The notes beneath the pieces are model-generated. The model did not search any database and was not told where the DNA came from. It saw only the letters and a list, made by a program, of their open reading frames with translations. This document shows, one piece after another, positions 1 through 50,608 of a stretch of DNA of 60,139 nucleotides. The translations under genes were made by a program, and so were the position numbers. Source of the DNA: Bacteroidota bacterium (GTDB lineage: Bacteria > Bacteroidota > Bacteroidia > JABEUT01); NCBI GenBank assembly GCA_021823405.1, contig JAKAOA010000003.1, forward strand, positions 1 through 60,139, in the 5' to 3' direction. Each line of letters begins with the position of its first letter. Within the stretch, counting starts at the first letter, position 1.

Positions 1-428
1 CGATCTTTGCAAATCAGTGCCGGTATATCTCTATAATTTACTATTAAATCCTTTCATCTATTTTTATTGGCTTTATTCATTTGCGCTGCCTAACCCCAAT
101 TACAGCAGTATTTTAGCAATAGAATTAAGCACAAGATAAAATGACAACATCTACAATAAGCCAAAGTTAATCTTTTTTACCTCTCACCCTCTTCTTGCAC
201 AAGGAGAGGGCAGGGTGAGGTAGAGTAATGGCTGATTGAGTTCAAGTGAACCCTCTCCTTACTCAAGGAGAGGGCAGGGTGAGGTAGAGTAATGGTCGTT
301 TGAGTTCAAGTGAACCCTCTTCTTGCACAAAGAGAGGGCAGGGTGAGGTAGAATAAGGGCAGAATGAGGCAGATTGTTAATAAATAAATTATCAATATAT
401 GTATTATGTAATAAATAATGTATATATT
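1..428. repeat. Long direct repeat, copy A. It may continue past the left window edge and lies 3' of the cassette.
   Basis: Near-identical to 3615..4104 with only scattered substitutions, except that it carries one fewer 64-bp unit. Both copies end at the shared ...aataatgtatatatt. Confidence 0.9.
187..378. repeat. Tandem array of 3 x 64-bp units, each with a 10-bp-stem hairpin.
   Basis: Units start at 187, 251 and 315. Each has the form ccctctcctt-nnnn-aaggagaggg followed by cagggtgaggtagagtaatgg..tgagttcaagtgaa. Confidence 0.9.
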
Positions 429-433
429 CTATA

Positions 434-639
434 GTACCCGCTAAGCTTAGCCCGCTGTAATTTGTTTTGCGGGCTGGCTTAGTGGGTTAGTAAAAAGTAA
501 GCTGTGCTTATTATATTTGCAATATGAAAACTATTTTTAAGTATAACTTAAAGGACTTTTTACCCACTAAGGCAATTTCTGCCCGAACTGTAGCAGGCGG
601 GCACGAAACAAATGCAGGTGAATTGACCTTAGCGGGTAC
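434..639. repeat. 206-bp palindromic element with nested inverted repeats around a promoter-like box.
   Basis: gtacccgctaag (434-445) is the exact reverse complement of cttagcgggtac (628-639). cttagtgggt (478-487) is the reverse complement of acccactaag (562-571). Each arm also has its own GC hairpin (agcccgc..gcgggct and tgcccg..cgggca). TATATTTG lies at 512-519 in the centre. Confidence 0.75.
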
Positions 640-769
640 GGGTTTAAGAGATGATAAAAACAAAAGCGAGATTTTTGTTGACAGGCGAAAGTGTCTATCT
701 GAACGTCATCCCTTTATGGGGCAGGAGAATAAAGTTTGTCTTAAGAGAAAAGACAAATAAGGAAAGATC

Positions 770-1177
770 CTAAGTACCCGCGGCATTACGTTCAAAATCA
801 AGTGGCGCAGATTTCTTGGCTAGTTTCTTAGCTATTCTCTTGGTATCACCGAGAATTAATGCATGCGCTCCATTTTGCGTATCTTCAGCAGGATAGGGGT
901 CATGTCTACACTCATAATTATTCTCTATTGGAATTTGGGCTAAAAATTCGGCAACTCTAAAGGATGTAAGTTCCCCTATAAATCTATTAATATCAAGTGT
1001 CAGAACCTTAATATTTATAGATAATCCATTTTCATCTCGTTTTGTTTTGAAAGCTGCACTGGTAGGATAATAACGACCATCAATCTTTTTAAAGAAGTGG
1101 ACAAATATAGGGTTGTCTATAATTGGAAACCTTCGAAGTAAATAATCTTCATTTATTATGGAATATAAAGTACACAT
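770..1177 (-). CDS. Hypothetical 135-aa protein, third gene of the cassette operon. No family assigned.
   Basis: The ORF starts 1 nt after the upstream gene's stop. Local pattern is ..YYPTSAAFKTK..GLSINI.. and ..NGAHALILGD... AT-rich codon usage matches its two partners. Confidence 0.65.
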   Translation of the reverse strand: MCTLYSIINEDYLLRRFPIIDNPIFVHFFKKIDGRYYPTSAAFKTKRDENGLSINIKVLTLDINRFIGELTSFRVAEFLAQIPIENNYECRHDPYPAEDTQNGAHALILGDTKRIAKKLAKKSAPLDFERNAAGT

Positions 1178-1178
1178 G

Positions 1179-1673
1179 TTAAACTGCTACAAATAGGTCT
1201 AAAACAGAATATGGATCCGATAGCTTATCTTCAACTGTAATATCACCTTCATTGTTATAAATAATAAGATTCAGTTGCCCGTTCTCACCTATCTCGATTT
1301 CTGCCATTGCATTTTCATCATCGAATTCAAATTGCACCCCACCATCTCTCATTGGGAAAACATTAATGTGAGCAGTATTAGTTGAACCAATGTGAGTATC
1401 TATAATACCCAATATTTCTATAGCTTTAATTATAGCCGTAGGAGAAATTGCATTAGCATTGTAGCTATCCCAATTCTGTTTAAGATCTTTAAAAGAATTT
1501 ATTGAATTAAGTAGCTTTAAATACCTATCATCGGTTACTGTGGGTGTACTAATATCAAAAAAAGGTACAGGTCCTTGTATAAATAAGTTATTGGCGGTAC
1601 TACCAGTTACGAAAGTACTCCAAGTCTTGGAGTCCATGGTATTGTCAAATAATAATTCCGGAGTATATGCCAT
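1179..1673 (-). CDS. Hypothetical 164-aa protein, second gene of the cassette operon. Possibly immunity/antitoxin-like.
   Basis: There is a 2-nt gap to the upstream gene's stop. The motif LKQNWDSYNANAISPTAI is reminiscent, from memory, of small immunity-type proteins. The C-terminus is acidic. Confidence 0.65.
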   Translation of the reverse strand: MAYTPELLFDNTMDSKTWSTFVTGSTANNLFIQGPVPFFDISTPTVTDDRYLKLLNSINSFKDLKQNWDSYNANAISPTAIIKAIEILGIIDTHIGSTNTAHINVFPMRDGGVQFEFDDENAMAEIEIGENGQLNLIIYNNEGDITVEDKLSDPYSVLDLFVAV

Positions 1674-1675
1674 AT

Positions 1676-3526
1676 TTAATTGTTTGGAAATTTATAATTA
1701 CTTAATTTAAGTATTATACATAGAGCATAAAGAGGGTGAACAAAAGAATATTCATAATTGTCCATTAATCCGTGCGCTATGCGGTTTCTAAGATTTATTC
1801 CAGCTTTATCGGATAATATATATCTCATAAAAAACACATTATCCTGTCCCAACTGAAATTTTAATCCGTCTAATAGTTCATCAAGTATACATTCCATTAT
1901 AATTCCGGATGGACCTTTAGGAACTGGCTTGAACGAGGGAATCCCAAATTTTGTGCATAATTCTCTAAGTAAGTATTCTATTTTTAGAATAAGAGAATCT
2001 GTGGCTATCATAAAATTTGGTGACTGAGTTGGATGGTTTTTCCAATATTCTAATTCTTTAAAGAAAAGTTCAAGACCGGGCGAAATCATTGCCAAATAAT
2101 CGATTTCTTTCTCTGTTCCGTAAACTTTTCTAATGGCTGGGGCATTCAACCATGTTTTTTTTAAGAATGAAATAACTGAAACATAAGAAATCTTTTCTGC
2201 TCTATGTGCCTCTAAAAAGAAATTTATTAAGGTTTGGGTTGCGACCTGGAAATGAATACCATATACTCTTTTAAATGTAAAATCATTCTTTTCATCATCT
2301 GAGGTATATTTAGCTATCGTATTCCCAAATTTATCTATAACTTCTGAATTCATTAAATTAAGTAAGACGTTTTCATGGGACATTCCTTTTGACATTTCCT
2401 TAATCTCCTCCAAGGGTCTGATCATAGGTAAAAAAAGCAGTGTCTTGATTATGGTCTCTTGGTCTCCATTGGTCACGGTATCTTTTATGTAATCCAGTAT
2501 TTCTTTTGTTTCGTCGTCAGTAAAAGACATTCTACTTTTATTTAACGTAAAGTGGTTCCGGTATTTGACATATTCGACTTGTAGTCGCTTATGATTCTTT
2601 TCGTCCTTTAAATCCTTGTGGATTTTCATTGCTTGTACAATAAAAGATACGGTAGAGATATCGTCTCTTTTTAGACCTTCTTTCGCTAAAATTTCACATT
2701 GGTTAGCTTTTAGACGCAAAAAGGTTTCACGACTTGATTTGGTGAGTTTAATTAGTTTCAAACTAATGTCACTTGTATAAATAGCTCCCCAGGCATTATT
2801 GTGATTGCTTAAGAAGTTAGCAGCTTCTAAATTTTTGGTTAGTATTCTTGAAACATCTACATACCTGCTGAATTCCCTATAATATTTTATTGCGAAGTCT
2901 GTTAAGTCAATAATTACTCGCAAAGTACTTCTACTATTTAAATTCCATTCACTGTGAGTTGTAACAATATAATCGGTTAAGAATTTAACTTTTTCAGCGA
3001 ATTTTCGATAATAAGCGATATAATAGGCATTGCTTAAAGCTGCTTTGAAATTAAAAATGTAATGAAATTCATCATCGTTGATCTTAGCTTTGTTTAGATA
3101 ACTGTTTGTTAAATCAATTAAGGTGTCAAGCAAAACTATAGACTCTTCTTTTGATAATTTACCCTTGTAAAAGAGTAGCAATCCATATTCGGATTTTGCA
3201 TATTTGTTTTTGCATGATTGGAATCGCTTATGGATATGTTCGAATTGATAGTTGTCCCATTCCCTGATATTGGGCCACTCGAACGGGACAATTGTCCCAT
3301 CGTCCAATTTCCGCTCACCCCTCAATTTAAAAAATACTCCTTTGTCGGGATTTTTATTAAATTCGAAAGTATGTCTCTCGGCTTCAGATTTAAGGAGATC
3401 ATCTTCTAGATTTTCCTTATGAAATTCATCACTAACTTCAATGAATTCATGGAGAATGAGATCCTTTTGCCTTTCATCCCAGTCAGACTCATCAATTTTT
3501 TTATATACCTGATTAAGTAGACTCAT
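1676..3526 (-). CDS. 616-aa protein with a C-terminal HEPN-like (Rx4H) motif, DUF4209/Abi-like. Putative RNase effector.
   Basis: The long ORF is clean. The C-terminus reads ...SDKAGINLRNRIAHGLMDNYEY..., which is R-N-x-x-A-H with a polar residue after Arg, as in HEPN active sites. The preceding ~540 aa are helical and K/E/N-rich with no recognisable domain. Confidence 0.75.
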   Translation of the reverse strand: MSLLNQVYKKIDESDWDERQKDLILHEFIEVSDEFHKENLEDDLLKSEAERHTFEFNKNPDKGVFFKLRGERKLDDGTIVPFEWPNIREWDNYQFEHIHKRFQSCKNKYAKSEYGLLLFYKGKLSKEESIVLLDTLIDLTNSYLNKAKINDDEFHYIFNFKAALSNAYYIAYYRKFAEKVKFLTDYIVTTHSEWNLNSRSTLRVIIDLTDFAIKYYREFSRYVDVSRILTKNLEAANFLSNHNNAWGAIYTSDISLKLIKLTKSSRETFLRLKANQCEILAKEGLKRDDISTVSFIVQAMKIHKDLKDEKNHKRLQVEYVKYRNHFTLNKSRMSFTDDETKEILDYIKDTVTNGDQETIIKTLLFLPMIRPLEEIKEMSKGMSHENVLLNLMNSEVIDKFGNTIAKYTSDDEKNDFTFKRVYGIHFQVATQTLINFFLEAHRAEKISYVSVISFLKKTWLNAPAIRKVYGTEKEIDYLAMISPGLELFFKELEYWKNHPTQSPNFMIATDSLILKIEYLLRELCTKFGIPSFKPVPKGPSGIIMECILDELLDGLKFQLGQDNVFFMRYILSDKAGINLRNRIAHGLMDNYEYSFVHPLYALCIILKLSNYKFPNN

Positions 3527-3614
3527 GCCATTAGTGTATAGTTACTTAAATATACAGAAAAAAAGTCGTTCATACACTGTTTACAATATATAGCCATAAA
3601 ATCTCCCGTAGGCG

Positions 3615-4104
3615 CTGATTTGTAATCAGTGCCGGTATATCTCTTTAATTTACAATTAAATCCTTTCATCTATTTTTATTGGCTTTATTCATTTGCACTG
3701 CCTAACCCCAATTACAGCAGCATTTTAGCAATAGAATTAAGCACAAGATAAAATGACAACATCTACAATAAGCCAAAGTTAATCTTTTTTACCTCTCACC
3801 CACTTCTTGCATAAGGAGAGGGCAGGGTGAGGTATAGTAATGGTGGTTTGAGTTCAAGTGAACCCTCTCCTTACTTTAGGAGAGGGCAGGGTGAGGTATA
3901 GTAATGGTCGTTTGAGTTCAAGTGAACCCTCTCCTTACTCAAGGAGAGGGCAGGATGAGGTAGAATAATGGTCGTTTGAGTTCAAGTGAACCCTCTCCTT
4001 GCACAAGGAGAGGGCAGGGTGAGGTAGAATAAGGGCAGGATGAGGCAGATTGTTAATAAATAAATTATCAATATATGTATTATGTAATAAATAATGTATA
4101 TATT
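3615..4104. repeat. Long direct repeat, copy B. It is the 5' leader/promoter region of the cassette operon.
   Basis: Aligns to 1..428 and carries four rather than three 64-bp units. Confidence 0.9.
3799..4054. repeat. Tandem array of 4 x 64-bp hairpin units.
   Basis: Units start at 3799, 3863, 3927 and 3991. The consensus is the same as at 187..378, and variation is concentrated in the loop and upper stem (ttgcataa, ttactttag, ttactcaag, ttgcacaag). Confidence 0.9.
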
Positions 4105-4270
4105 TGCGTTCTTTAGCGATGAGAGATAAGATATGAGCTATAAACGATAAGCTATGAGATATAAGCTATAAGATATAAAAGATGAACAATGAGATAAACT
4201 TCTAACTGCTATAAAATGATTTTGATAACAGAAAATATAGTGCCTGTGAATTATTTTGTAAAGGAAAAAA

Positions 4271-4314
4271 TACCGGCAATGAATGAAAATGCAAAACATT
4301 CATGTCGCTATAAC
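4271..4314. repeat. 44-bp palindromic element, copy 1 of 2 in the window.
   Basis: taccggcaatgaatgaaaatgcaaaacattcatgtcgctataac matches 45491..45534 at about 40 of 44 positions. Its core is atgaatg..cattcat. Confidence 0.7.
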
Positions 4315-4794
4315 GTCAAATTTTCAAATCTTTATAAAATTATTGGAAATCAACATGTTTCATTAAAATATCTGAAATACACCTCCACCCCCCAATATGA
4401 AAAAATACGCATTTTCCGACAAAAAGCGACAGAATTTGCTACGCCTTTCAGGACTGGTATCAACAGGGAACAGCCATACGGACAGGGCAATAGACAAGGT
4501 GTTAATGGTGCGGCGCCGTTTTCGGCTAATTACGTCGGCAGGTGCAAGAGAAATATTGGCTCAATCCCGCGAACCAACTATAATTGTTGAAATTCAGCGA
4601 ACAAGAGAAATAGCAGAAAATAGCGCTGTTATCAAAAAAGCCATAATTAGCCATTTTTAGCCAAATGTTAAAATATAGGCATACACTCCCCGTAAACGAT
4701 TTTGCTTCGCTAAATCAATTGCCGGCAATATACAATGGCACCGGCATGTTTAACTTACGATTAACTTTTTGCCGAAGAGATGAGCGGAAATGAT

Positions 4795-4802
4795 TAAATT
4801 TG
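4795..4802 (+). promoter_or_regulatory. Bacteroidota -7 promoter box (TAnnTTTG) for clpX.
   Basis: TAAATTTG lies 40 nt upstream of the clpX ATG. Confidence 0.45.
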
Positions 4803-4841
4803 CATAAACTAATTTGACATCGGCGCGAAAATTCAACTCCA

Positions 4842-6089
4842 ATGGCGGAAAAAGATTTAATAAAATGTTCCTTTTGCGGTAAAGACAAAAAGGATGTTTT
4901 CATGATGATAGGCGGTTTGAGCGGTCATATCTGTAATCAATGTATTGAGCAGGCGCAAAAGATTGTAGAGGAAGAATACAAGCAGCGGCTCCAGCCCAAC
5001 AAAATTCAACTGACAAAACCTTCGGAAATAAAGAGGCGGCTCGATGAATATATTATTGACCAGGATGACGCCAAAAAGGTAATGTCGGTGGCAGTGTACA
5101 ACCATTACAAGAGAATACTTCAGAATAAGTCGGAGAAACAGAACGACGAAGATGATGTTGAACTCGAAAAGTCGAACATCATTCTGGTAGGAGAAACGGG
5201 AACAGGCAAAACCCTCCTCGCCCAAACAATAGCCCGTATTTTAAATGTACCCTTCTGCATTGCTGATGCAACCGCCTTCACCGAAGCCGGCTATGTAGGC
5301 GAAGATGTGGAGAATGTACTCGTGCGGCTGCTGCAAGCGGCAAATTACGATGTAGCGGCAGCTGAAAAGGGCATAGTTTTTATAGACGAAATAGATAAAA
5401 TATCGCGCAAAGAAGGTGACAGCCCTTCCATAACAAGAGATGTAGGCGGCGAGGGCGTTCAGCAGGCATTGCTTAAAATGCTTGAAGGTTCAATAGTAAA
5501 TGTTCCTCCTCATGGCGGTAGAAAACATCCCGAACAGAAGACCATCCCTGTGAATACCAAAGACATATTATTCGTATGCGGCGGAGCGTTCAACGGTATA
5601 GAGAAAAAAATTGGACGGCGGCTACAGTCGCATGCCATCGGTTACTTTTCTCAAAGCGAAAAGCAGGAAATAGACCGTAATAATATGCTACAGTATGTTT
5701 CGCCGGAAGACCTGAAAAGTTTCGGTTTAATACCGGAACTTATAGGACGGCTTCCTGTAATTACCTTCCTTAACCCGCTCAACAAGGAAAGTTTGAAACG
5801 AATACTTACCGAACCGAAGAACGCTCTTATAAGGCAATACACCAAGTTATTCGCCATCGACGGGATAAAACTTACCTTTGATAAAAGTGTGTACAACCTT
5901 ATTGTGGAAAAAGCCCTTGACTATAAACTCGGGGCAAGAGGATTGCGCGCTATCTGTGAGGCGATACTTACCGATGCCATGTACGAAACGCCTTCAAAAT
6001 CGGACGTAAAGGAATTTCATGTAACATTGCGATATGCAAAAGAGAAAATAGAACGTTCTGCATCTCTTAATCGTCTTAAGGCGGCTTAA
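4842..6089 (+). CDS. clpX: ATP-dependent Clp protease ATP-binding subunit ClpX.
   Basis: N-terminal zinc finger CSFCGK..CNQC, Walker A GETGTGKT, and [31 protein letters not shown]. Confidence 0.97.
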
Positions 6090-6117
6090 ACCCTAATAAC
6101 CGGACATACATACAGAT

Positions 6118-6708
6118 ATGAAAAAGGGATATATTGTTCTTATAGTAATACTGGGATTATTGTTGATGATGTTTCTATGGGTTAAGAACATCTACAATAA
6201 TATAGTTACCATGGATGAAGCGGTAACCGCCCAATGGCATAACGTAGAAACTCAATACCAGCGTCGTATGGACCTTATCCCTAACCTTGTAAACACTGTA
6301 AAGGGATACGCCAATTTTGAAAAATCAACGCTCACAGCAGTAATAGATGCCAGAGCCAACGCTTCTAAAGTTACCATTGACCCAAGCCATATCACCCCAG
6401 ACCAGATGCAGCAGTTCGAAGCGGCACAGGGGCAGTTGTCCTCATCTTTATCCCGGCTTCTGGTTACTGTTGAGCGCTACCCTGACTTGAAAGCCGACCA
6501 AAATTTTTTGAGTTTGCAGGCGCAGCTTGAAGGCACCGAGAACCGTATTGCAACCGAACGCCGTCGGTTCAATGAAGCTGCCCAGGATTTTAACACCTAT
6601 ATCAGGCGCTTCCCGCAGAATATTTTTGCAGGAATGTTTAATTTCCAGACGAGGGCATATTTCAGTTCCGACCAGGGCGCCGAAAAGGCACCACAGGTGA
6701 ATTTTTAA
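6118..6708 (+). CDS. lemA: LemA family membrane protein.
   Basis: An N-terminal TM segment followed by QWHNVETQYQRRMDLIPNLVNTVKGYANFE, typical of LemA. Confidence 0.9.
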   Translation: MKKGYIVLIVILGLLLMMFLWVKNIYNNIVTMDEAVTAQWHNVETQYQRRMDLIPNLVNTVKGYANFEKSTLTAVIDARANASKVTIDPSHITPDQMQQFEAAQGQLSSSLSRLLVTVERYPDLKADQNFLSLQAQLEGTENRIATERRRFNEAAQDFNTYIRRFPQNIFAGMFNFQTRAYFSSDQGAEKAPQVNF

Positions 6709-6791
6709 CTGACTGTTGAATAGCCCAAAGCGCCTGTGCCATCCGGAAAATGGCGTCAGTAAAAATTCAATGGGTTCTTACTGCGGAGCGG

Positions 6792-7940
6792 TTACTTCAG
6801 CAGCTGGTGTATCCTTATGCTTGTGCTCATGAATAATATTTTTGGATTGGCGTTCCGCTCAATTGCATGAAAGACCTTATTCAGCTCTTCAGCAATGAGC
6901 GCTGCCTGCGAAAACGGAAGATACGTTGAAAACTTTATCAGAAATTCCTCTTCGTTTTGTCGCAACCTCACCGGGAATCCAACCCCAAGCAGTAAACTCT
7001 GTCTTATCAGTTGAATGCAGTACGCCATGAACTGTTTCTGCTTTTCCCTGCCAATGCCCGCCATTTCGGTAACCCATCCGATAATACCTTCCCCATTCAG
7101 TTTCATACATATTCTCATCCATTCTGCGAACTTCTGAAAATGAAAGTCGGTATGCTCTTTATCGCTTGCCAGTATTCGGGCAACGCGGTAGTTGCCTTCT
7201 GATGTTTGCGCTATATATCGGGCTGCCTCGCCGGTGAGTTCATATTTGCATATCAGGTCAGCTATCATCTCTTCTTCGTCTATTCGCGGCACCCTTGTAA
7301 GCTGCGTTCTGGATAATATGGTAATGGGGAGATGGGAGTTTTCCGTTATTAATATGAAGATGGTCTTATCCGGCGGCTCTTCCAGTACTTTCAGTATCTT
7401 ATTGGCAGTGGTAATATTCATCTTTTCAGCCATCCACATAATCACAACCTTATACGAACCCTCGAACGAGGTAAGGCTTAGCTGATGAATTATTTCTCTG
7501 GCTTCATCCACACCTATTACCATCTGCTTGTTCTCCACTTCAAGCGCTTCCATCCAGTCGGCAAGCGATAAGTAAGGGTTTTGCAGAAATGCCTCCTTCC
7601 ATTGATGGAATACATCTATGCTTTTGCTTATCCCGCCTGATTTTGACTCTGTCCCTCGTATGCCGCCTTCCTTCGATTTGGTAAGGGAAAGAGGATAAAC
7701 AAAATGAACATCGGGATGCATGAGTTTGGCTATTTTGCGGCATTCCGGACACTCGCCGCATGAATCGGTTTCGCTTTTATTTTTACAAAAAAGGTATTGA
7801 ATGTATGCCATTACTAGCGGAAGCGCTCCGTTGCCTTCAGGTCCGGCGAATAGTTGCGCGTGGCTTATTCGCCCTTCTCTTGCAGATTGCAGAATAGATT
7901 GTTTTACACGCTTTTGTCCTATTACTTCGGAGAATTGCAT
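6792..7940 (-). CDS. holB: DNA polymerase III subunit delta'.
   Basis: ISHAQLFAGPEGNGALP (AAA+ P-loop variant), zinc module CGECPECRKI, and LKVLEEPP. Confidence 0.9.
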   Translation of the reverse strand: MQFSEVIGQKRVKQSILQSAREGRISHAQLFAGPEGNGALPLVMAYIQYLFCKNKSETDSCGECPECRKIAKLMHPDVHFVYPLSLTKSKEGGIRGTESKSGGISKSIDVFHQWKEAFLQNPYLSLADWMEALEVENKQMVIGVDEAREIIHQLSLTSFEGSYKVVIMWMAEKMNITTANKILKVLEEPPDKTIFILITENSHLPITILSRTQLTRVPRIDEEEMIADLICKYELTGEAARYIAQTSEGNYRVARILASDKEHTDFHFQKFAEWMRICMKLNGEGIIGWVTEMAGIGREKQKQFMAYCIQLIRQSLLLGVGFPVRLRQNEEEFLIKFSTYLPFSQAALIAEELNKVFHAIERNANPKILFMSTSIRIHQLLK

Positions 7941-7980
7941 CGGCGTTATTAAAAGGAGGTGAATGAAAAATAGAGAGGAA

Positions 7981-8409
7981 TTATTCTTTCAGGAGGTAAG
8001 TGTAACGAACGGTAATCAGGTCGGGGGTTTGATAGTCGAGAACAAGCTTGTTCGCCTCAATACTAATGGCTTTGAACAGCATCTTGGTTTCGGTTGTAGC
8101 TCCGGATGATTTCGATACGGTATTTAAATAAACGCCTGCGGCTTTCCATGTTCCGCTGCCGCTAACGCCTTCTGTAGTAATTAAAAAAGAGCCATCTGTG
8201 TTGAATGTCACACAGTCGCCTTTTTCTTTGGCGTTTGCCGTATGCGCAACATCGAACATTTCAACCGAATCCAGTTTCCACGTTTTGCAGAGCATTTTAA
8301 CCTTGTCCGCCGTAAGGTTTACGCCGTGCGATACTCTCCACGATGGCTGCGCCCTACCTGAAAGCGATACCATTATAACGAGGATGGAAATTAAAGCTGT
8401 TTTTTTCAT
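7981..8409 (-). CDS. Small secreted hypothetical protein, lipocalin-like by size.
   Basis: Signal peptide MKKTALISILVIMVSLSGRAQ. The start was chosen at the internal Met rather than the ORF-track start at 8448. Confidence 0.6.
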   Translation of the reverse strand: MKKTALISILVIMVSLSGRAQPSWRVSHGVNLTADKVKMLCKTWKLDSVEMFDVAHTANAKEKGDCVTFNTDGSFLITTEGVSGSGTWKAAGVYLNTVSKSSGATTETKMLFKAISIEANKLVLDYQTPDLITVRYTYLLKE

Positions 8410-8437
8410 GATTTTTTGGGATTGATATTTATACAGA

Positions 8438-10855
8438 TTAATGAACAAATACTTTTACATACTGGTATTGCTGATATTTTTCTTGATCCTGTGCATCTTC
8501 AGCATAATCGGGACCTTGAACTTCGGCATTCATCTCAAATCTCAATTTCTTGACATTCGCCTGTCTTTTTTTAAGGGCGTTCAGAATTGTTGTCTTTTCG
8601 GATTGCCCTCTTTTTTCCGCCAGTATCCTGTTGCTGTTTTCGTATTGGGCGCTTGTAGGTACTTTGGATGCGCTGGATTGAATGGTTACCGTTACCGAAT
8701 CGTGCATCAGCCGGTTCCTGATTTTATTTATCAAAGCGATAAAATTACTTGCTTTCTGTATATTCTGGTCGGCATTATATTTGAAATATTCAACAAAATC
8801 GGCATCTTCGGCAGATATTCGGATAATCTTCGGGGCAACTGCTGCAACTCTTGATATCTCCGATAAATCATCAAGATTGGCGGGTAAGTCGTGATAATAA
8901 TATGAGTCCTCGGTATTCTGATCGAAATTGCGCACTACTTTACCTTTGCTGTTCGCAAGTAAAAGTTTCTTCAGATGTTTTAACTTGGTATCCTTCAAAT
9001 CAATCTTTATTTGGTAACTCTTATTTCTCGGCAGCTTATAGAAAGTAAAGTGACCATGTTTATCGGTTAGGGTTGTTTGAATAACATTGCCTTTCTCATC
9101 AATCAACTGTATCTGCATATTAGCCAGTGGAGTGAGTGGTGCATCATTCAATAGAATTGAGCCGGTCATTGAATCGAGGGGCGTTTTTGGTTTTGGTACG
9201 AACACGTTGGTTGTATCGCCCAGAATAATTCCAGTCCGGAAGAAGGCGCGCGATAGCGAGTAGTATGAGCTATCTGCTGGTAGATAGAAATTTTGGTTGA
9301 ACACATTCTTGCCCTGGGTAGAAATTACCACATTATAAGTTTGATTCGGGCGCAGTACTTGCAGAAATTTACCGGTTTTCGGATTGGTTCTCGCCTTTAT
9401 CACATTTTTATGTCCATTCACCGCCGATGTTTTTATTATAATATCATTCGGTATGGGTTTATTATCCGGCGAGCGTATATAGCCCGAAAGCACTGCAACA
9501 TGTTTTACGGGTAAGGGAACGTTAAATATGACCTCATAAATATCTTTTTCTCCTATCTCATCCTTTCTAACGGTACTGTAATACGCTCTTCTTCCATCAG
9601 GCGATACGTTAAAATAGGCATCATCGTCGGGGGTATTGATAGGATACCCGAGGTTTGTCGGCTTTCCCCATGTTGCTCCCGTATCCATCTGCGCCATGAA
9701 TACATCAAAGCCCCCCATAGTGTTATGACCTTTTGAACTGAAAAATAATGTTGAGTCATCGGCGTGTATAAAGGGTGCATCTTCGTCATATTCGGTATTG
9801 ATGTTCGGTCCCAGATTAACTGGCTGGCTCCATCTACCACTGTCGGAAATGGTTATTTTGTATAAATCGGCGCCGCCGATTCCGCCTGCCCGATCGCTTG
9901 AAAAAATAAGCGTTTTACCATCCGGGCTGATACAGGCACCCCTGCCGGCAGTACCGTTGTTTATCGTACCCGGGCTAGCCGAATCCAATGTCTGACCTCC
10001 GCTCCACTGCATACCGCGCAGATAACTTACATAGAGGTTATTGGCGCCGGTTTCCGACTGAACGAAGAATAACTCCTGTCCGTCTGGCGAAACAGAAAGG
10101 GTTGCATTGTTTCCGCCTGCATTTACCGTATTGCCAAGAGTTTTAGCTTTTGTCCAGGAGTTGTCAGTTTTAGGATAGGATATCCACATTTGTTCATTGT
10201 AAAACCCTAAAGAATCTTTTTCAGAGTTAGAGTCATTAATACCACCTAATCGGCGGGAGGTAAATAGAATTTCCTGTTCATCGGCGGAAACAGCCGGATT
10301 ATAATCGGGATACTTACTGTTTATGCTGTCACCCATGTTTATTATTTTGCAATCTACAGGCGATTTTACAAGTTCAATACCGCTACTGCAACAGTTGATC
10401 CAATAATCTATATCCTTCTGGCGAGGGTCGGATTTGGACAACATTTTTTTGAATACATTAAAGCTATAAATGGCATCGTTAAATAGATAATTTATATGTT
10501 GTGCGCGGGCGTAGTAGTAATAGGCGGGTGCTGGCGCATCCTTTTCGTACGGGTCATCGGGCGTATATCTTGATGTGATATGCGCAGCTGCCTTTTGGAG
10601 GTATGGCAGCGCCTTATATTTATAAGCGGGGGTTTCAAGATAGAGTTGTCCGATAAAATAACATACGTTGGCATTCTGCGTATCTGCCTTGTAAAGTTGC
10701 AGGAAGGTTCTTAATGATGAGTCGCTAAGGTGTTCATTCATCATCAGGTTGCCTTGTGTGAACAGGTAACGGATATTCTCGTTCCCTGAACCCTTCTGCG
10801 CAGACAGGTGGAGAGAGATAATTGTTAAAACCGCTACTGCGATAATTTTTTTCAA
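8438..10855 (-). CDS. TPR / PD40 (TolB-like beta-propeller) / CarboxypepD_reg-like envelope protein with a divergent OmpA-like C-terminus.
   Basis: Signal peptide, repeated SPDG/SADE PD40-type motifs, GSILLND..GHFTFYKLP, and a C-terminus reading TVTIQSSASKVPT..NSNRILAEKRG. Confidence 0.8.
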   Translation of the reverse strand: MKKIIAVAVLTIISLHLSAQKGSGNENIRYLFTQGNLMMNEHLSDSSLRTFLQLYKADTQNANVCYFIGQLYLETPAYKYKALPYLQKAAAHITSRYTPDDPYEKDAPAPAYYYYARAQHINYLFNDAIYSFNVFKKMLSKSDPRQKDIDYWINCCSSGIELVKSPVDCKIINMGDSINSKYPDYNPAVSADEQEILFTSRRLGGINDSNSEKDSLGFYNEQMWISYPKTDNSWTKAKTLGNTVNAGGNNATLSVSPDGQELFFVQSETGANNLYVSYLRGMQWSGGQTLDSASPGTINNGTAGRGACISPDGKTLIFSSDRAGGIGGADLYKITISDSGRWSQPVNLGPNINTEYDEDAPFIHADDSTLFFSSKGHNTMGGFDVFMAQMDTGATWGKPTNLGYPINTPDDDAYFNVSPDGRRAYYSTVRKDEIGEKDIYEVIFNVPLPVKHVAVLSGYIRSPDNKPIPNDIIIKTSAVNGHKNVIKARTNPKTGKFLQVLRPNQTYNVVISTQGKNVFNQNFYLPADSSYYSLSRAFFRTGIILGDTTNVFVPKPKTPLDSMTGSILLNDAPLTPLANMQIQLIDEKGNVIQTTLTDKHGHFTFYKLPRNKSYQIKIDLKDTKLKHLKKLLLANSKGKVVRNFDQNTEDSYYYHDLPANLDDLSEISRVAAVAPKIIRISAEDADFVEYFKYNADQNIQKASNFIALINKIRNRLMHDSVTVTIQSSASKVPTSAQYENSNRILAEKRGQSEKTTILNALKKRQANVKKLRFEMNAEVQGPDYAEDAQDQEKYQQYQYVKVFVH

Positions 10856-10875
10856 GCAGGTAAACTGTTAGTTAC

Positions 10876-13419
10876 TTATTTTACATATACCTTGACGAAC
10901 TGATACCACTGATATTTTGATTCATCATCCGCATCATGCCGGTAAGCAGGACCATTCACCTTGGAGCGTGTCTGTATATCAAGGTTTGATATGTCCGCCT
11001 GTTTATTTTTCAATGCTTCTATTATTACCTCTTTTGCCAGTTTAGCTCTGTCTTCCGACAGCCCTTTATTCCCTTTTGCAAATATATGAGTCGGTACTTT
11101 AGAGGCGCTTGCTACAATAATAACGGTAACCCTACCGCTGGCAAGCAGGGTTGATATTTTATCTATAAGACCTGTAAATCCATCGTCTTTTTCTGAAATG
11201 GAGTTGGTGTTATACCCAAAATATCTGACGAAATCGGGAGCGGCGGAAAGCAGGACTTTTTTCCCTTTAGTCCCTTTGCGTTCCTGCGTTGATGCTGCAG
11301 GAATAACGGTGGTATCGGGTGCGGCGGCGACAGGGTTAACCTTAACTATTCGTTCCTGTACAAGTTCAGGTAATTTATTCAGGTCGGCAGGCAAATCGTG
11401 GTAATAATATTTCTTTTTCTTCGTCTCGTCGAAATTGCGTACCACTTTGCCGTCCGAATTTACGAGTAGCAATTTTTTCAAACGCATTTTTGTCTCTTTT
11501 TCATCGATTCCAATTATAAATGCGCCATCGGGGTTGAGGTCTTTGAAAGTAAAAGCGCCATCGGTTCCCGTTACTGTTTTTTGAATTACTTTTCCATCAC
11601 TTGCGATAAGCTGTATCTCTGTTTCAGATAATGGTTCCACAGGACTATTATTTAATAAAACCCTTCCGATCATATCCGCTGTTGTAACCTTCTTTTCAGT
11701 TTTTACGGCTACTGCCGCGGCTTTCTTTTTAGGAACAAAGACGTTGTTAGTATCGCCTAGTATAATTACAGACCGGAAAAAGGCGCGGGTTAGGTTTGAA
11801 TAGGAGCTATCGGCTGAAAGAAAGAACTTTTGGTTGAATACATTTTTCCCTTGGGTGGAGATTGTTATATTGTAGTTCCTGTCAGGGCGCATAACCTGAA
11901 GGAATTTTCCGGAAATATAATTTACCGGTACGGTAACGCTATATGTTCCGCCTACCATACCGGCGGTAACCTTCAGGTCATTAGGCAAGCGGCTTCCGTC
12001 CGGGGTTTTTATGTATCCTACAAGAACAGCCACAGGTTGTACCGACAGCGGCTGCCTGAAAATCGCCTCGTAAATATCCCGCTCATCTATCCCATCATTT
12101 CTTATAGATGTGTAGTATGCCCTTCGCCCGTCTGCGGATACCGTGAAGTTTATATCATCATCAGGGCTATTTATCGGGTAGCCAAGATTTTTAACCTTTC
12201 CCCATTTGCCGGATGCATCTTCCTGTGCGCTGAACACATCGAAGCCCCCCATGGTATTATGTCCCTTTGAACTGAAATACATGGTAGAGTCATCGGGATG
12301 GATAAAGGGTGCATCTTCATCGTACTGGGTATTCACTAAACTTCCGAGATTCACTGGGTCATCCCATTTGCCGTTACTCTCTATGTTTATTTTGTAAAGG
12401 TCGGTGCCTCCGAAACCGCCTGCTCTCCTGCTCGCAAATATCAGTGTATGCTGGTCGGGACTTAGGCAGCAGTTTGGCTCAAATGTATGGCTATTCACAG
12501 CGCCCATGTCGAATGAATCTATTGCCTGGGGGTAGGTCCATTGCGTTCCTTTAAGGTAGCTCACCATCAGGTTGCCGTTTTTCCCTTCGGAAAGCATGGA
12601 GTTGTCTTGGTAAATTATCAGTTCCTGACCATCCGGCGAGAGGTAAACTGCCCTGTCGTTCCGCGGAGAATTAACCGGAGACCCGAGATTGCTCGCCTGT
12701 GTCCACCCGCCATCAGGTTTTGCATTTGTAATCCAGACATCTTCATAATAATGCCCGTTAATATCTTTATTCGAGTCGCCGTTGGACAGAGGGCGGCAGG
12801 AGGTAAAAAACAATTCCTGTTCATCGGCGCTTACAACCGGACCAAAGTCAGGATAACGGCTGTTCACACTGTCTCCGAGCTTAATAATCTTACAATCCAC
12901 CGGGTATTGCATAAGGTCTTTTGCGTTGTTGCAGCAGTTAATCCAGTAATCGATAGAATCGGCATCAGCAGTTAGCAGCTTTTTGAACCTGTTGAAATTT
13001 AAAATTGCATCATCGAATTTATAGTCCAGATGTTGCGCGCGCGCAAGATAAAAGTACGCTATCGGCGGGGCGTCTTTTTCATAAGGGTCGTCGGGATGAT
13101 AGTTATCGGTTACATGCGCCGCGGCTTTTTCAAGATAGCGCAATGCCTTCGTCTTCCGTGCGGTCGTTTGCAGGTAGAGTTCTCCAATAAGGTAACAGAC
13201 ATTTGCATTTGAACTGTCTGTTTTATACATTGCCAGAAAGGTCATTAATGCGGAGTCGTTAAAATGCTCCCCCATCATCAGATTCGCCTGTGTGAAAGAT
13301 TTTCTCCAGCTTTCGCTGACGTTGTTGGCGGGCTGGGCGCTTGCCCTGAAATGTGAAACAGCGAGGGTAAAAGAAATAAATATTATTGTAAAAATCGTAA
13401 CTTGTTTAGAGGAGTACAT
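10876..13419 (-). CDS. Paralog of the preceding TPR/PD40 envelope protein.
   Basis: Collinear similarity to the 805-aa neighbour, for example ANVCYLIGELYLQ..PDDPYEKDAP..DEDAPFIHPDDST..GHNTMGGFDVF. Confidence 0.8.
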   Translation of the reverse strand: MYSSKQVTIFTIIFISFTLAVSHFRASAQPANNVSESWRKSFTQANLMMGEHFNDSALMTFLAMYKTDSSNANVCYLIGELYLQTTARKTKALRYLEKAAAHVTDNYHPDDPYEKDAPPIAYFYLARAQHLDYKFDDAILNFNRFKKLLTADADSIDYWINCCNNAKDLMQYPVDCKIIKLGDSVNSRYPDFGPVVSADEQELFFTSCRPLSNGDSNKDINGHYYEDVWITNAKPDGGWTQASNLGSPVNSPRNDRAVYLSPDGQELIIYQDNSMLSEGKNGNLMVSYLKGTQWTYPQAIDSFDMGAVNSHTFEPNCCLSPDQHTLIFASRRAGGFGGTDLYKINIESNGKWDDPVNLGSLVNTQYDEDAPFIHPDDSTMYFSSKGHNTMGGFDVFSAQEDASGKWGKVKNLGYPINSPDDDINFTVSADGRRAYYTSIRNDGIDERDIYEAIFRQPLSVQPVAVLVGYIKTPDGSRLPNDLKVTAGMVGGTYSVTVPVNYISGKFLQVMRPDRNYNITISTQGKNVFNQKFFLSADSSYSNLTRAFFRSVIILGDTNNVFVPKKKAAAVAVKTEKKVTTADMIGRVLLNNSPVEPLSETEIQLIASDGKVIQKTVTGTDGAFTFKDLNPDGAFIIGIDEKETKMRLKKLLLVNSDGKVVRNFDETKKKKYYYHDLPADLNKLPELVQERIVKVNPVAAAPDTTVIPAASTQERKGTKGKKVLLSAAPDFVRYFGYNTNSISEKDDGFTGLIDKISTLLASGRVTVIIVASASKVPTHIFAKGNKGLSEDRAKLAKEVIIEALKNKQADISNLDIQTRSKVNGPAYRHDADDESKYQWYQFVKVYVK

Positions 13420-13733
13420 GTTCTTATTTTAAAGAGTGTTCATTTAGCCAGAAAATTATGTCACCCAAAAGTAAAGTTTTTTTACTAAAAATGGTCAGTT
13501 TTCCTATAAATATCAGTTTTGACGGACAAATTACGCCTATTAAAGCGCCCTATCCGGTTCAGATTCATCAGCTAAATCATATTTGGAAGAACGGCGTATT
13601 TATTGCAATAACGGTTGGAGGCGAAAAAACGGAGCAGGTCGCCGCAAAACTGCTAACTGTCTTTTGTTTTAATGGGCTTCGGTTAATTGCATGTTAAATT
13701 TTAATAATATTGGCAAGAAATTTACTAATCTGA

Positions 13734-14588
13734 ATGATGACTCTAATAGCAGATAGCGGTTCTACAAAGGCGGCATGGCGGCTGATTGACAAGAGCGGCG
13801 GCGTTCGCAGTTTACATACTGAAGGGCTTAATCCCTATTTCAAAACAAAGACGGAAATTATTGATGAGGTTAGGAATACATTGATACCCGGTTTCCAATC
13901 AGCCGCATTGGTAAAAAAGGTATTTTTCTATGGCGCCGGATGTTCGGGTCCTGAAAAATGTAAGCTGGTAAAAGATGCCCTATCGGAATGTTTTCCTCAA
14001 GCGAAAATAACCGTAGAGCATGATATTCTGGCTGCGGCGCATGCTACATGCGGAAACTCACACGGGATAGTGAATATTCTCGGAACAGGGTCTAATTCAT
14101 GTTTGTACGATGGCAAAAAGATTATAGACCAAATTGGCGGGTTGGGACATATATTAGGAGACGAAGGCAGCGGGGCGCACTTGGGGAAGAACCTGTTGGA
14201 GGATTTTATGAATCATGCTCTGCCAAAGGATTTAGAAGATGATTTTAAACAGAACTTCCACCTTGGAAAGGAAGAAATTAAGATGCGGGTTTACGAAAAA
14301 CCGCTTCCAAACCGCTTTTTAGCTTCGTTCGGTTGTTTTATCGGCGAAAGGAAAGGGCATCCGTATTTTTCGGGGATGATAGGGAACTGCTTTAATATTT
14401 TTCTTGAAAAGCATGTTTGTATGTACCCCGATTATAAAGTAATGCAGGTGCATTTTGTAGGTTCGGTTGCATACTTTTTCAGCGATATACTTAAGAAGAC
14501 GGCCAGAGCAAAGGGAATTAAAATCGGGAAAATTTTACCTTACCCGATTGAAGGGCTGACCGAATACCATCTAAAAAAAGTAAGGTAA
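13734..14588 (+). CDS. N-acetylglucosamine kinase-like ATPase (BadF/BadG/BcrA/BcrD family).
   Basis: LIADSGSTKAAW, ILGTGSNS and GDEGSGAHLG motifs. Confidence 0.85.
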   Translation: MMTLIADSGSTKAAWRLIDKSGGVRSLHTEGLNPYFKTKTEIIDEVRNTLIPGFQSAALVKKVFFYGAGCSGPEKCKLVKDALSECFPQAKITVEHDILAAAHATCGNSHGIVNILGTGSNSCLYDGKKIIDQIGGLGHILGDEGSGAHLGKNLLEDFMNHALPKDLEDDFKQNFHLGKEEIKMRVYEKPLPNRFLASFGCFIGERKGHPYFSGMIGNCFNIFLEKHVCMYPDYKVMQVHFVGSVAYFFSDILKKTARAKGIKIGKILPYPIEGLTEYHLKKVR

Positions 14589-14748
14589 TCAGGTTAGGAT
14601 AATTTACCCTCTGCAGGCAAACTTTATTTGTCGGATTGCAGTAAGGCGCCTCAACCGGAATGACAGCACGATTACCACATTATCTTGTAACATAGCAGAT
14701 GCGTTAGTTTGTAAATACCTATCCGTTTTTTTAACGATTCTTCTTTCT

Positions 14749-43487: not shown

Positions 43488-44695
43488 GGAGATTTGTACT
43501 GAATCTCCTTTTAAGCGCATCCTATTTTGTAGGAATATTTACCGTTTTCGCACTCGTAATTCGATTCTGCGGAACTGAAAATCCAGTGAGCAGGAATAGT
43601 TTTTTAGTGTGGGATACAATCCATTACTACGATATAGTTAAAAATGGCTATAATCCGGCGAGTACGGCTTTTTTTCCGCTATTCCCGTTTTTCTGGAAAA
43701 TAACAGGGCTGGGCGGTATTGGAATTGCGGTTCTTAATGGAATCATTTTTATTTTGTCTGTTTCATATCTTGCCACGGTATTGAATCTCCCTTCAAAGAT
43801 TTATTTACTGCTGCTCACCTTCCCGTCAATTTTCTTTTGTTTCATTCCCTACAGTGAATCATTGTTTTTTTTAGGCGGATGTCTTTTACTTGTTGGAATA
43901 ATACAGGGAAAGAATTATCTGGCGCTTGCAGGGATACTGATAGATTCCATTACACGACCTGTAGCTGCTGTTTTTGTGCCCGCTTTTATCATTATGGCAT
44001 TATTCACCGTTGCAGAAGCAAAGGAGAGAAGACGAAATGCCTTATTATATTCGCTGACTGCTGTAGCCGGCTTGCTGCTGGTGTTATTCATTCAATACAG
44101 CGCCACCGGCGAATGGTTTACCTTTTTTAAAGCCCAAAGGGACGGCTGGGGCAATAGCTTTCGCCTGCCTCGTTTTCATTTTACTTCTTGGAATGGCGAT
44201 AATATTGTAAGGTTGGACGCAACTGCTTTTTTAATCGGCATGTCTGCTACCGCCGCGCTGGGTTATATGCTGCTAAAAAGAAAATTGAAGGAGATGAATC
44301 CCGCTTTATTATTCTCCTTACTTTATCTTGCCGGTATCTGCTGGCTTGTACTATTTACAAGGGGCGGAAGCATGTTCAGTTTGAACCGCTTTATCTATGC
44401 AACGCCATTTTTCTTTGTTGCTTTACCGGAATTGATAAAAATAAGATGGAGTATTAAAAATTACATTTTATTATTCGTTACCGTAAATGCGTTTTGGTTA
44501 TTATTCGGGAGTTATGTTCACATTCAACAGGTATTAATTTACCTGCTTTTAACCATCTTCCTGTTCTCCCTTTTGTTTATTTCGCATCCGAAAAGAATAA
44601 TTAATATGGTCGGCTATTCAGTTTTTATGCTCGGAAATATTACCTTGCAGATTTACTTTTTCCAGTGGTTTCTTAATGGGGGATGGGTTGGTTAA
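43484..44695 (+). CDS. GT-C type membrane glycosyltransferase candidate (PIG-V / DUF2029-like).
   Basis: WDTIHYYDIVKNGY....AFFPLFPFFWK motif and about 10 TM segments. The GTG start overlaps the upstream stop (GTGA). Confidence 0.6.
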   Translation: MRRFVLNLLLSASYFVGIFTVFALVIRFCGTENPVSRNSFLVWDTIHYYDIVKNGYNPASTAFFPLFPFFWKITGLGGIGIAVLNGIIFILSVSYLATVLNLPSKIYLLLLTFPSIFFCFIPYSESLFFLGGCLLLVGIIQGKNYLALAGILIDSITRPVAAVFVPAFIIMALFTVAEAKERRRNALLYSLTAVAGLLLVLFIQYSATGEWFTFFKAQRDGWGNSFRLPRFHFTSWNGDNIVRLDATAFLIGMSATAALGYMLLKRKLKEMNPALLFSLLYLAGICWLVLFTRGGSMFSLNRFIYATPFFFVALPELIKIRWSIKNYILLFVTVNAFWLLFGSYVHIQQVLIYLLLTIFLFSLLFISHPKRIINMVGYSVFMLGNITLQIYFFQWFLNGGWVG

Positions 44696-44697
44696 AA

Positions 44698-45486
44698 ATG
44701 AATAAAATGAACACAAATAAAAAAAATAGTAATCCACGAGAACTTATTCGGAATAGTACTGCCGGCACTCGCCTTAATAAATACATAGCCGCGGCCGGAT
44801 ACTGTTCGCGGCGCGATGCCGATGAACTTGTATTTGCCGGATTGGTAACTGTGAACGGTAAGCATATTCTTGAACCGGGATATCGCGTAAAACAGGGAGA
44901 TATGGTGATAGTGGAGGGCAGAAAAATAAGGCAGCCGCAGAAGTATTATATACTCCTCAACAAGACGAAAGATGCAATTACTACCACCTCTGACGAACGG
45001 GGGCGGAAAACGGTGATGGACTTGATACGAGGCGCCTGCGACGAGAGTGTTTATCCTGTGGGGCGGCTCGACAGGAATACGACTGGCTTACTGCTGCTGA
45101 CCAACGACGGCGAACTGGCTAACCGGCTGATGCACCCTTCCGGTGAAGTAAGAAAGGTGTATAAAACCCGTTTGGACAGAGATATTTCCTATGAAGTAAT
45201 TAAAAAGATAAGAAAAGGAGTTATGCTTGAAGACGGACTTGCCTTAGTTGACGAGGTCAATCACATAAAAGGCGAAACCGGTGATACGCTGATGCTGGTA
45301 TTACACAGCGGAAGGAACAGAATAGTAAGGCGCATATTTGAAGCGGTTGGGTTTAAAGTAGCTGCGCTCGACAGGGTAGGATATGCGGGCTTAACGCTCC
45401 ATGGTCTCGGCAGAGGCGAATGGAGGTATTTATCGAATGAAGAAGTAAAAGAACTGTATAAGAGAACCAACCGGCTCAAAATCTAA
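44698..45486 (+). CDS. Pseudouridine synthase, RsuA/RluB family, with an S4 domain.
   Basis: RLNKYIAAAGYCSRRDAD.L (S4 domain); GRLDRNTTGLLLLTNDG (catalytic Asp). The start was chosen after the upstream stop. The ORF track begins at 44683. Confidence 0.9.
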   Translation: MNKMNTNKKNSNPRELIRNSTAGTRLNKYIAAAGYCSRRDADELVFAGLVTVNGKHILEPGYRVKQGDMVIVEGRKIRQPQKYYILLNKTKDAITTTSDERGRKTVMDLIRGACDESVYPVGRLDRNTTGLLLLTNDGELANRLMHPSGEVRKVYKTRLDRDISYEVIKKIRKGVMLEDGLALVDEVNHIKGETGDTLMLVLHSGRNRIVRRIFEAVGFKVAALDRVGYAGLTLHGLGRGEWRYLSNEEVKELYKRTNRLKI

Positions 45487-45490
45487 GTTA

Positions 45491-45534
45491 TACCGACTAT
45501 GAATGAAAATACAAAACATTCATGTCGGTATAAC
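45491..45534. repeat. 44-bp palindromic element, copy 2, lying between convergent genes.
   Basis: ttataccgac(t)atgaatg-aaaatacaaaa-cattcatgtcggtataa gives a ~17-bp stem with one bulge. It matches 4271..4314. Confidence 0.75.
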
Positions 45535-50292: not shown

Positions 50293-50330
50293 TTTTTTAC
50301 CCATAAGTTATTTTGTAGTTAATTTATTAT

Positions 50331-50338
50331 TATTTTTG
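50331..50338 (+). promoter_or_regulatory. TAnnTTTG -7 box ahead of the cobalamin riboswitch.
   Basis: TATTTTTG lies immediately 5' of the riboswitch P1 region. Confidence 0.45.
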
Positions 50339-50339
50339 C

Positions 50340-50512
50340 CCCGCAATGGTTCCGCCGTTGGCGGATTAAAAGGGAATCGGGTGAAAGTCCCGGACAGTTC
50401 CCGCTGCTGTGAGCTCTTAAATAGGTTTTTTGGACATAGTAAGCCACTGACCGCAACTTTGCGGAATGGGAAGGCGCCAAAAACAGAGCGAGTCAGAAGA
50501 CCTGCCAAAGCG
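50340..50512 (+). promoter_or_regulatory. Cobalamin (B12) riboswitch.
   Basis: Core AAAAGGGAAUCGGGUGAAAGUCCCGGACAGUUCCCGCUGCUGU (50369-50410), and B12 box AGUCAGAAGACCUGCC at 50491-50506. Confidence 0.9.
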
Positions 50513-50608
50513 AAATAATAATTCAATGCTTCGGGAGAAAGCGGAGAGTGAATAAACTCGGGATTTATTCCTTTCCTGTTTGTCCCACAAAGTTAAAAAC
50601 TCAATAAT

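Follow-up and report, generated by a model that had tools for sequence, protein, structure and literature searches.

A three-gene accessory cassette with a putative HEPN component between diverged direct repeats upstream of clpX in an uncultured Bacteroidota bacterium

Background

Several of the known systems nearest to the locus reported here are recognised by the following signatures. A rAID-1 array begins with a 5' XerD-like recombinase more than 44% identical to BF9343_RS08045, followed by at least two co-directional genes of no more than 41% GC with repetitive intergenic sequences (bioRxiv 10.1101/471110). Integron arrays adjoin an IntI-type tyrosine recombinase gene with attI, and their cassettes are each bounded by attC sites, for which the signature used here is an imperfect palindrome of 57-141 bp with R''/L''-L'/R' cores (GTTRRRY). 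On the side of the cargo, the DUF4209 domain has been placed in the HEPN RNase superfamily (Anantharaman et al. 2013, PMC3710099). The window analysed here is the whole of a 60,139-nucleotide (nt) contig (JAKAOA010000003.1, assembly GCA_021823405.1) of a Bacteroidota bacterium; at its left end, upstream of the housekeeping gene clpX, a three-gene cassette lies between two same-orientation copies, R_A and R_B, of a non-coding segment, R. We tentatively favour an origin of this R-cassette-R bracket by Campbell-type insertion-duplication, which would have made the cassette excisable. On present evidence the bracket is one locus in one uncultured lineage. It is a new instance of a familiar structure, the direct-repeat-bracketed accessory cassette, and a fairly ordinary arrangement; the points it adds are modest, namely a variable hairpin minisatellite within the repeats and a three-gene form of a catalogued HEPN candidate system.

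Diverged direct repeats around a foreign block

The repeats and their tandem arrays occupy the following window positions:

12-428, no strand assigned: R_A, the left direct repeat, 417 nt, made up of a unique part (174 nt), three units of 64 nt each and a tail rich in A+T
3624-4104, no strand assigned: R_B, the right direct repeat, 481 nt, laid out as R_A but with four 64-nt units
186-377, plus strand: 64-nt tandem array of R_A, units A1-A3
3798-4053, plus strand: 64-nt tandem array of R_B, units B1-B4, variable in copy number

A first-pass annotation, made from the letters of the sequence, had described near-identical direct repeats bracketing a 3.2-kb cassette, and this description holds. 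With unit B2 taken out of R_B, a repeat finder and global alignment give 15 substitutions in 417 aligned bases (96.4% identity), the right copy carrying an extra 64-nt unit; the individual differences quoted at the time (ctataatttactatt vs ctttaatttacaatt, and gcgctgcc vs gcactgcc) are correct. Differences specific to R_A include those at 33, 42, 85, 109 and 363. The longest block of exact identity measures 80 nt (110-189 in R_A, 3722-3801 in R_B), and the terminal 65 nt of the two copies are identical. Homology begins between positions 11 and 12 and between 3623 and 3624, bases 1-11 and 3613-3623 agreeing at only 5 of 11 positions, and ends sharply between 428 and 429 and between 4104 and 4105. 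Both copies share one orientation and exact boundaries around a single foreign block. The left copy had also been placed at the window edge, correctly; the window being a complete contig, that edge, at most 11 nt from the left boundary of R_A, is the contig end and not an arbitrary cut.

Each copy of R closes with a 51-nt tail of nearly pure A+T. Every 64-nt unit contains a perfect hairpin with a 10-bp stem and a 4-nt loop, CCCTCTCCTT-NNNN-AAGGAGAGGG, followed by CAGGGTGAGGTAGA, and this 34-nt hairpin-plus-tail motif occurs seven times in the 60-kb window, always within R_A or R_B, against none expected from shuffled sequence, which excludes a chance origin of the repeat. The longest open reading frame (ORF) that touches R encodes 48 amino acids (aa). 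R has no Rfam match, a search of positions 1-4900 at E<=1 having returned a single chance microRNA match, and scans for sigma-70 promoters and terminators remained at chance level.

The cassette and its relatives

Between the repeats, three tightly packed minus-strand genes span positions 770-3526 and read leftwards as one operon, as the first-pass annotation had proposed:

1676-3526, minus strand: cassette gene 1, 616 aa, with a helical N-terminal region and a C-terminal DUF4209 (ERMARD-type HEPN) domain
1179-1673, minus strand: cassette gene 2, 164 aa, a conserved partner marked by the motifs NWDSYNA and FPMRDGGxQxExD
770-1177, minus strand: cassette gene 3, 135 aa, a conserved partner

Gene 1 has the two characters expected of the DUF4209/PDC-S39 group, a PF13910 match above the gathering score and a conserved Rx4-6H motif. 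It matches Pfam PF13910 (DUF4209, now named after ERMARD/C6orf70) at E=3e-9 and 37.3 bits, the gathering cut-off being 22.3, and the PADLOC candidate system PDC-S39 at E=3.9e-19; its motif takes the form Rx4H, with R580 and H585 invariant in an alignment of 34 sequences. The AlphaFold model of the protein is confident (pLDDT, the per-residue confidence score, 88), and a fold search of the PDB with this model returned generic helical-repeat matches only. Gene 2 gives a weak match to the C-terminal part of PADLOC PDC-M32A, and neither gene 2 nor gene 3 has a match in Pfam, PHROGs or NCBIfam. The cassette genes have a GC content of 33%, as against 43% in the adjoining conserved genes.

With amino-acid identities of 33-61%, the three-gene order recurs in several contigs of uncultured Bacteroidota, whose chromosomal neighbours are quite different, and again on plasmid pHA of Hymenobacter sp. 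APR13 (L106, 4854-7629), where it lies beside a HipA toxin-antitoxin pair and metal-resistance genes. Judged from sequence, the cassette is a horizontally mobile accessory operon and most plausibly a putative HEPN-based conflict or defence system. The PLSDB gene table does not list the third gene on pHA (7303-7629). Viral contigs of IMG/VR (L107-L109, 6001-7884) also carry full-length relatives of the DUF4209 protein, at 28-29% identity; on these contigs tblastn detected no homologues of partner genes 2 and 3.

Promoter-like signals and the role of R

The first-pass annotation had cast copy B as the promoter or leader module of the operon, a role that was not borne out. One feature upstream of gene 1 bears on this directly:

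3545-3562, minus strand: promoter-like motif TTTTTCTGTATATTTAAG, outside R and about 21 nt ahead of the ATG of gene 1

The motif sits within 97 cassette-specific bases that separate gene 1 from R_B. In the homologous cassettes, TTTTCGTATCTTTAAG and its variants stand at the same distance, about 21 nt before the ATG, as the sole conserved stretch in upstream regions that otherwise cannot be aligned, and they resemble the Bacteroidetes -7 element (consensus TAnnTTTG). A TAnnTTTG box is present on the minus strand inside each copy of R (at 169 and 3781); the window holds 70 such boxes, and those inside R occur at background (chance) density and carry little weight. Five homologous cassettes in other genomes have no R, no 64-nt array and no flanking direct repeat of at least 25-30 nt. 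Because these cassettes lack R while possessing their own conserved promoter-like motif, R is to be regarded as local DNA, and its candidature as the intrinsic leader of the cassette is rejected. The cassette appears to bring a promoter of its own.

Variation among assemblies

The left flank and an empty site were sought by exact-protein look-up, in which the 616-aa protein led to contigs L001 and L002 only, a 78-aa ORF to L001 and a 124-aa ORF to L103; the 415-aa ClpX and LemA matched no record. L001 (ENA ERZ27237364), from another sample, covers window positions 458-4329 and is 100% identical over 458-3797 and 4041-4329. As it joins cassette, R_B and flank at this level of identity, it confirms their arrangement in a second sample. 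Its copy of R is B-type at all four diagnostic sites of the left part and has three units, the first being a hybrid of B1 and B2; since unit number differs while the sequence is otherwise 100% identical, repeat-mediated deletion or expansion is evidently faster here than point mutation. L002 (Logan SRR13206618) covers 613-3638, again at 100% identity. L103 (GCA_027320225.1, 60436 nt) is 100% identical over the 10.6 kb compared (window 3958-14590) and begins at 3958, inside the last unit of R_B. Another contig of 63.8 kb (63803 nt) carries the same ClpX and not the 616-aa gene, and probably also starts at or to the right of ~3958, while a further contig, L091, found through a 395-aa ClpX call, starts at 4648. 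R is a recurrent assembly breakpoint.

These comparisons also bear on the age of the two copies. Two strains with zero substitutions in 3.6 kb share the B-type R, from which R_A differs at all four diagnostic left-part sites, and the divergence of R_A from R_B must therefore be much older than these strains or have been imported ready-made. From the sequence comparison we infer that an old or imported divergence of 3.6% would favour the arrival of an already diverged R over duplication in situ.

Beyond these contigs R proved elusive. A 22-mer from its unique part had no exact match in GTDB species genomes or JGI metagenomes; a 20-mer across the unit junction, sought in JGI metagenomes and IMG/VR, gave no more than a 24-nt match, attributable to chance, within the coding sequence of a phage; and blastn with R_B plus flanks found nothing among PLSDB plasmids or INPHARED phages. 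No further copies occur in ~80 kb of this genome (the window, L091 and contig L104, described below). Metagenome-assembled genomes (MAGs) usually lack repeats, and these negatives do not fix the copy number of R in this genome. An unrelated high-GC phage (L083, IMGVR_UViG_3300048080_000407; 3063-3084 and 3877-3918) has intergenic CCCTCTCC-loop-GGAGAGGG hairpins, one of them followed by the CAGGGTGAGGTAGA tail, with a similarity to the R unit of 35/40 nt. As the hairpin core with a GGCAGGGTGAGGTAGA tail thus recurs, the short hairpin motif is not unique, and it is the 64-nt unit and R as a whole that are.

How the bracket may have arisen

The favoured explanation takes R to be a local non-coding segment at a variable spot upstream of clpX, and the cassette to have been acquired horizontally. 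The cassette would have arrived on a circular molecule together with one R, derived from a somewhat diverged donor, and a single (Campbell-type) crossover with the resident R would have left R-cassette-R. RecA-type recombination between the repeats could then loop the cassette out as an R-bearing circle and leave a solo R behind, or could instead amplify the cassette in tandem. R would thus serve as a recombination handle for a cassette with its own promoter. We infer the crossover, the circle and the solo-R allele from the architecture of the locus, in which one homologous segment stands in the same orientation on both sides of an insert and no other junction signatures are present. The absence from the bracket of terminal inverted repeats, target-site duplications, an att-type RNA gene or a recombinase indicates homologous recombination. 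That the repeats might be a substrate for it had been suggested by the first-pass annotation, and the suggestion is credible given their 417 nt, the 80-nt exact block and the three-unit, B1/B2-hybrid R_B of L001 beside an identical cassette.

Several points weigh against this explanation. Insertion-duplication is recursive, and the origin of the first R-cassette circle is not explained by it. The end of the contig right at the outer boundary of R_A is not predicted by a simple presence/absence polymorphism, and may point to a third copy resembling R, or to left-hand sequence that varies. The junction of R_A with the cassette (428/429) is seen in the window's own contig only, and among the contigs reached by exact-protein look-ups there was no solo-R allele, circle junction or left flank. 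With R matched nowhere in GTDB genomes, JGI metagenomes, plasmids or phages, there is also no known donor. If insertion-duplication is nevertheless true, the locus would be a clean natural example of a defence cassette whose movement and loss take only plain homologous recombination at a non-coding handle and neither an integrase nor a transposase, and would help to explain why small defence operons lie between housekeeping genes with no mobile-element genes nearby.

The position of the contig end, exactly at the outer boundary of R_A, mildly favours one or other of two further readings. According to the first, which we regard as unlikely, the locus is part of a multi-cassette array, integron- or rAID-1-like, that continues to the left; R would be the module common to the spaces between its cassettes, and a site-specific recombinase encoded outside the contig would act on R, perhaps on its hairpins. 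Assemblers do stop, as here within 11 nt of the boundary, when content to the left of R differs among co-occurring strains; R holds three to four perfect hairpins, and R_A and R_B persist as distinct paralogues. The pairing of low-GC co-directional genes with repetitive intergenic sequences in rAID-1 arrays (bioRxiv 10.1101/471110) may have a counterpart in the three co-directional genes at 33% GC, but these form one tight operon that is bracketed, not separated, by repeats. Only two copies of R are known, and the homologous cassettes elsewhere have no such module. Neither the XerD-like recombinase of rAID-1 arrays nor an IntI-type recombinase was found, and no integrase, recombinase or transposase domain of any kind was detected in the cassette, its neighbours or the ORFs in up to 34 kb of the window, the left side lying beyond the contig end. 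The earlier remark that the window shows no integrase or transposase accordingly stands for the 34 kb scanned, the remaining 34-60 kb being outside the scan. At 417-481 nt R moreover greatly exceeds attC sites in length and, with three to four perfect direct-orientation hairpins and no GTTRRRY/RYYYAAC pair at its boundaries, does not resemble them; it is ruled out as such, and a three-gene operon with its own promoter-like motif is not a promoterless single-gene cassette. A bolder form of this idea, to which we give little credence, would make R, by virtue of its phased 64-nt hairpin units and AT-rich tail, the recombination site of an undescribed cassette-capture system. The contig would then stop at R_A because a variable array of further defence cassettes bounded by R, perhaps with a recombinase, occupies the interval from the suf operon region to clpX.

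Somewhat less probable than an array is the second reading, that R belongs to a dispersed family of non-coding repeats, like repetitive extragenic palindromes (REP) or miniature inverted-repeat transposable elements (MITEs), or an intergenic element bearing a minisatellite, and that the cassette lies between two members or was mobilised by them in composite fashion. It gains from L103, which begins inside R_B (the 63803-nt contig doing so by inference only), from the assembly of the cassette as 3.0-3.8-kb contigs in other samples, which is typical of a multi-copy repeat, and from the recurrence in an unrelated phage of a similar hairpin followed by GGCAGGGTGAGGTAGA. Against this stand the lack of other copies in ~80 kb of genome, the zero 22-mer matches and chance-only junction 20-mer matches in GTDB genomes, JGI metagenomes and IMG/VR, and the shared orientation and exact boundaries of both copies around one foreign block. 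With a longest ORF of 48 aa, and neither terminal inverted repeats nor target-site duplications at the four boundaries, R also does not conform to a composite transposon or MITE.

An assembly artefact is improbable. In that case the genome would have one R, and the contig would have fused to this chromosomal copy either a variant from another strain or an episome bearing the cassette and R. In favour of it, the source is a metagenome, the left copy lies at a contig end, its junction at 429 occurs in this contig alone and other assemblies break in R. Against it, L001, which stems from another sample and a separate assembler run, shows the cassette linked to a B-type R and onward to the clpX-side flank, all at 100% identity. 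The 15 differences between R_A and R_B are spread over the whole length, and the longest exact block (80 nt) is shorter than the k-mer size of such contigs (k=141). A circle alone cannot yield two different R sequences at two junctions. An integrase island at a tRNA, tmRNA or other non-coding RNA gene, with att repeats that stem from the 3' end of that gene, finds no counterpart here, there being no tRNA or tmRNA in the window, no relevant Rfam match in 1-4900 and no integrase in the island; a CRISPR array is ruled out by 'spacers' that are conserved.

Genomic setting

On either side of the operon and R_B lie the following features:

434-641, no strand assigned: hairpin region separating R_A from the operon's 3' end, with two long hairpins formed by four ACCCRCTAAG copies (436+, 478-, 562+, 628-)
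4105-4841, plus strand: non-coding stretch of 738 nt between R_B and clpX
4842-6089, plus strand: clpX, the nearest conserved housekeeping gene on the right-hand side of R_B, followed by lemA-holB and further conserved genes

The two hairpins at 434-641 have folding z-scores of -4.9 and -5.7 and no Rfam match, and the region overlaps the doubtful 78-aa ORF (524-760, plus strand). The 340 nt from R_A to the 3' end of the operon (429-769) are absent from the homologous cassettes, and two independent contigs terminate in the hairpin region, L001 at 458 and L002 at 613.

To the right, R_B is adjoined at 4115-4196 by AT-rich short tandem repeats with periods of 7, 14, 21 and 35 nt (ATAAGAT/ATGAGAT). 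A 45-nt palindromic element, ATACCGnCnATGAATG-AAAATnCAAAA-CATTCATGTCGnTAT, occurs at 4270-4314 and, 91% identical, at 45490-45534, where it begins 4 nt past the end of an ORF (44683-45486) in the manner of a terminator. The copy at 4270-4314 has no gene in front of it and may mark one that was displaced or deleted upstream of clpX. A TAnnTTTG box stands at 4795, 47 nt before the clpX ATG. Public calls of this gene start at Met21 (395 aa, P0191) and so deprive the N-terminal zinc finger of its first CxxC; full-length ClpX models and a 91%-identical relative agree with the 415-aa ORF.

That relative, the closest found and represented by several MAGs labelled Bacteroidia bacterium, keeps the clpX-lemA-holB synteny; a ClpX scan of GTDB gave a best identity of 68% among the matches listed. 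Upstream of its clpX (L086, 8490-11248) a PF19528 glycosyltransferase-like gene ends 113 nt before the start codon, and there is no R, no cassette and no DNA similarity to the window. In the window's own species, the PF19528 orthologue (55% identical) is found on contig L104 (Logan SRR13206618, 4480-7968), where the minus-strand genes sufS and sufD come next. This contig shares its sample of origin with two contigs that are 100% identical, and ends before any R. Because the orthologue is adjoined by sufS and sufD instead of clpX, the region between it and clpX is rearranged or variable.

Elsewhere in the window, a cobalamin riboswitch (RF00174, 99.9 bits) at 50330-50523, upstream of an ORF at 50609-51937, is the sole Rfam element, and two adjacent paralogous PD40/CarboxypepD_reg genes (8438-10855 and 10876-13419; 805 and 847 aa) explain a 162-nt, 70%-identical repeat at 10251 and 12794.

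Comparison with known systems

The locus most resembles the products of Campbell-type insertion-duplication, as in plasmid integration via shared homology, and amplifiable or excisable units flanked by direct repeats, such as the AUDs of Streptomyces. In each, a homologous sequence of a few hundred bp stands in the same orientation on both sides of foreign DNA, recombination can do without a dedicated recombinase, and the outcome should be a one-repeat circle, a solo repeat or a tandem array. It differs in that its repeats are 3.6% diverged and each contain a variable 64-nt hairpin minisatellite; the circle and the solo site are here predicted only.

With the rAID-1 arrays of the Bacteroidales (Ross et al.) and with integron arrays it has in common low-GC, co-directional accessory genes in Bacteroidota, repeated intergenic sequence and putatively conflict-related content. 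Here, however, no XerD-like or IntI recombinase is visible, two repeats are known, and these are not short and attC-like; the genes form a three-gene operon with its own promoter-like motif, and the cargo is a putative HEPN system, not immunity genes. IS26-type translocatable units and composite transposons likewise bracket their cargo with directly repeated copies of an element, and the cargo can depart as a circle that takes one copy along, but R has no transposase, terminal inverted repeats or target-site duplication.

In its cargo, finally, the locus belongs with PDC-S39 and the DUF4209 HEPN proteins, as the matches of gene 1 to both models and its invariant Rx4H motif attest. PDC-S39 is catalogued as a single gene, whereas here and at six or more other Bacteroidota loci two conserved small proteins follow it; in Bacteroidota this 'single-gene' candidate is a conserved three-gene operon.

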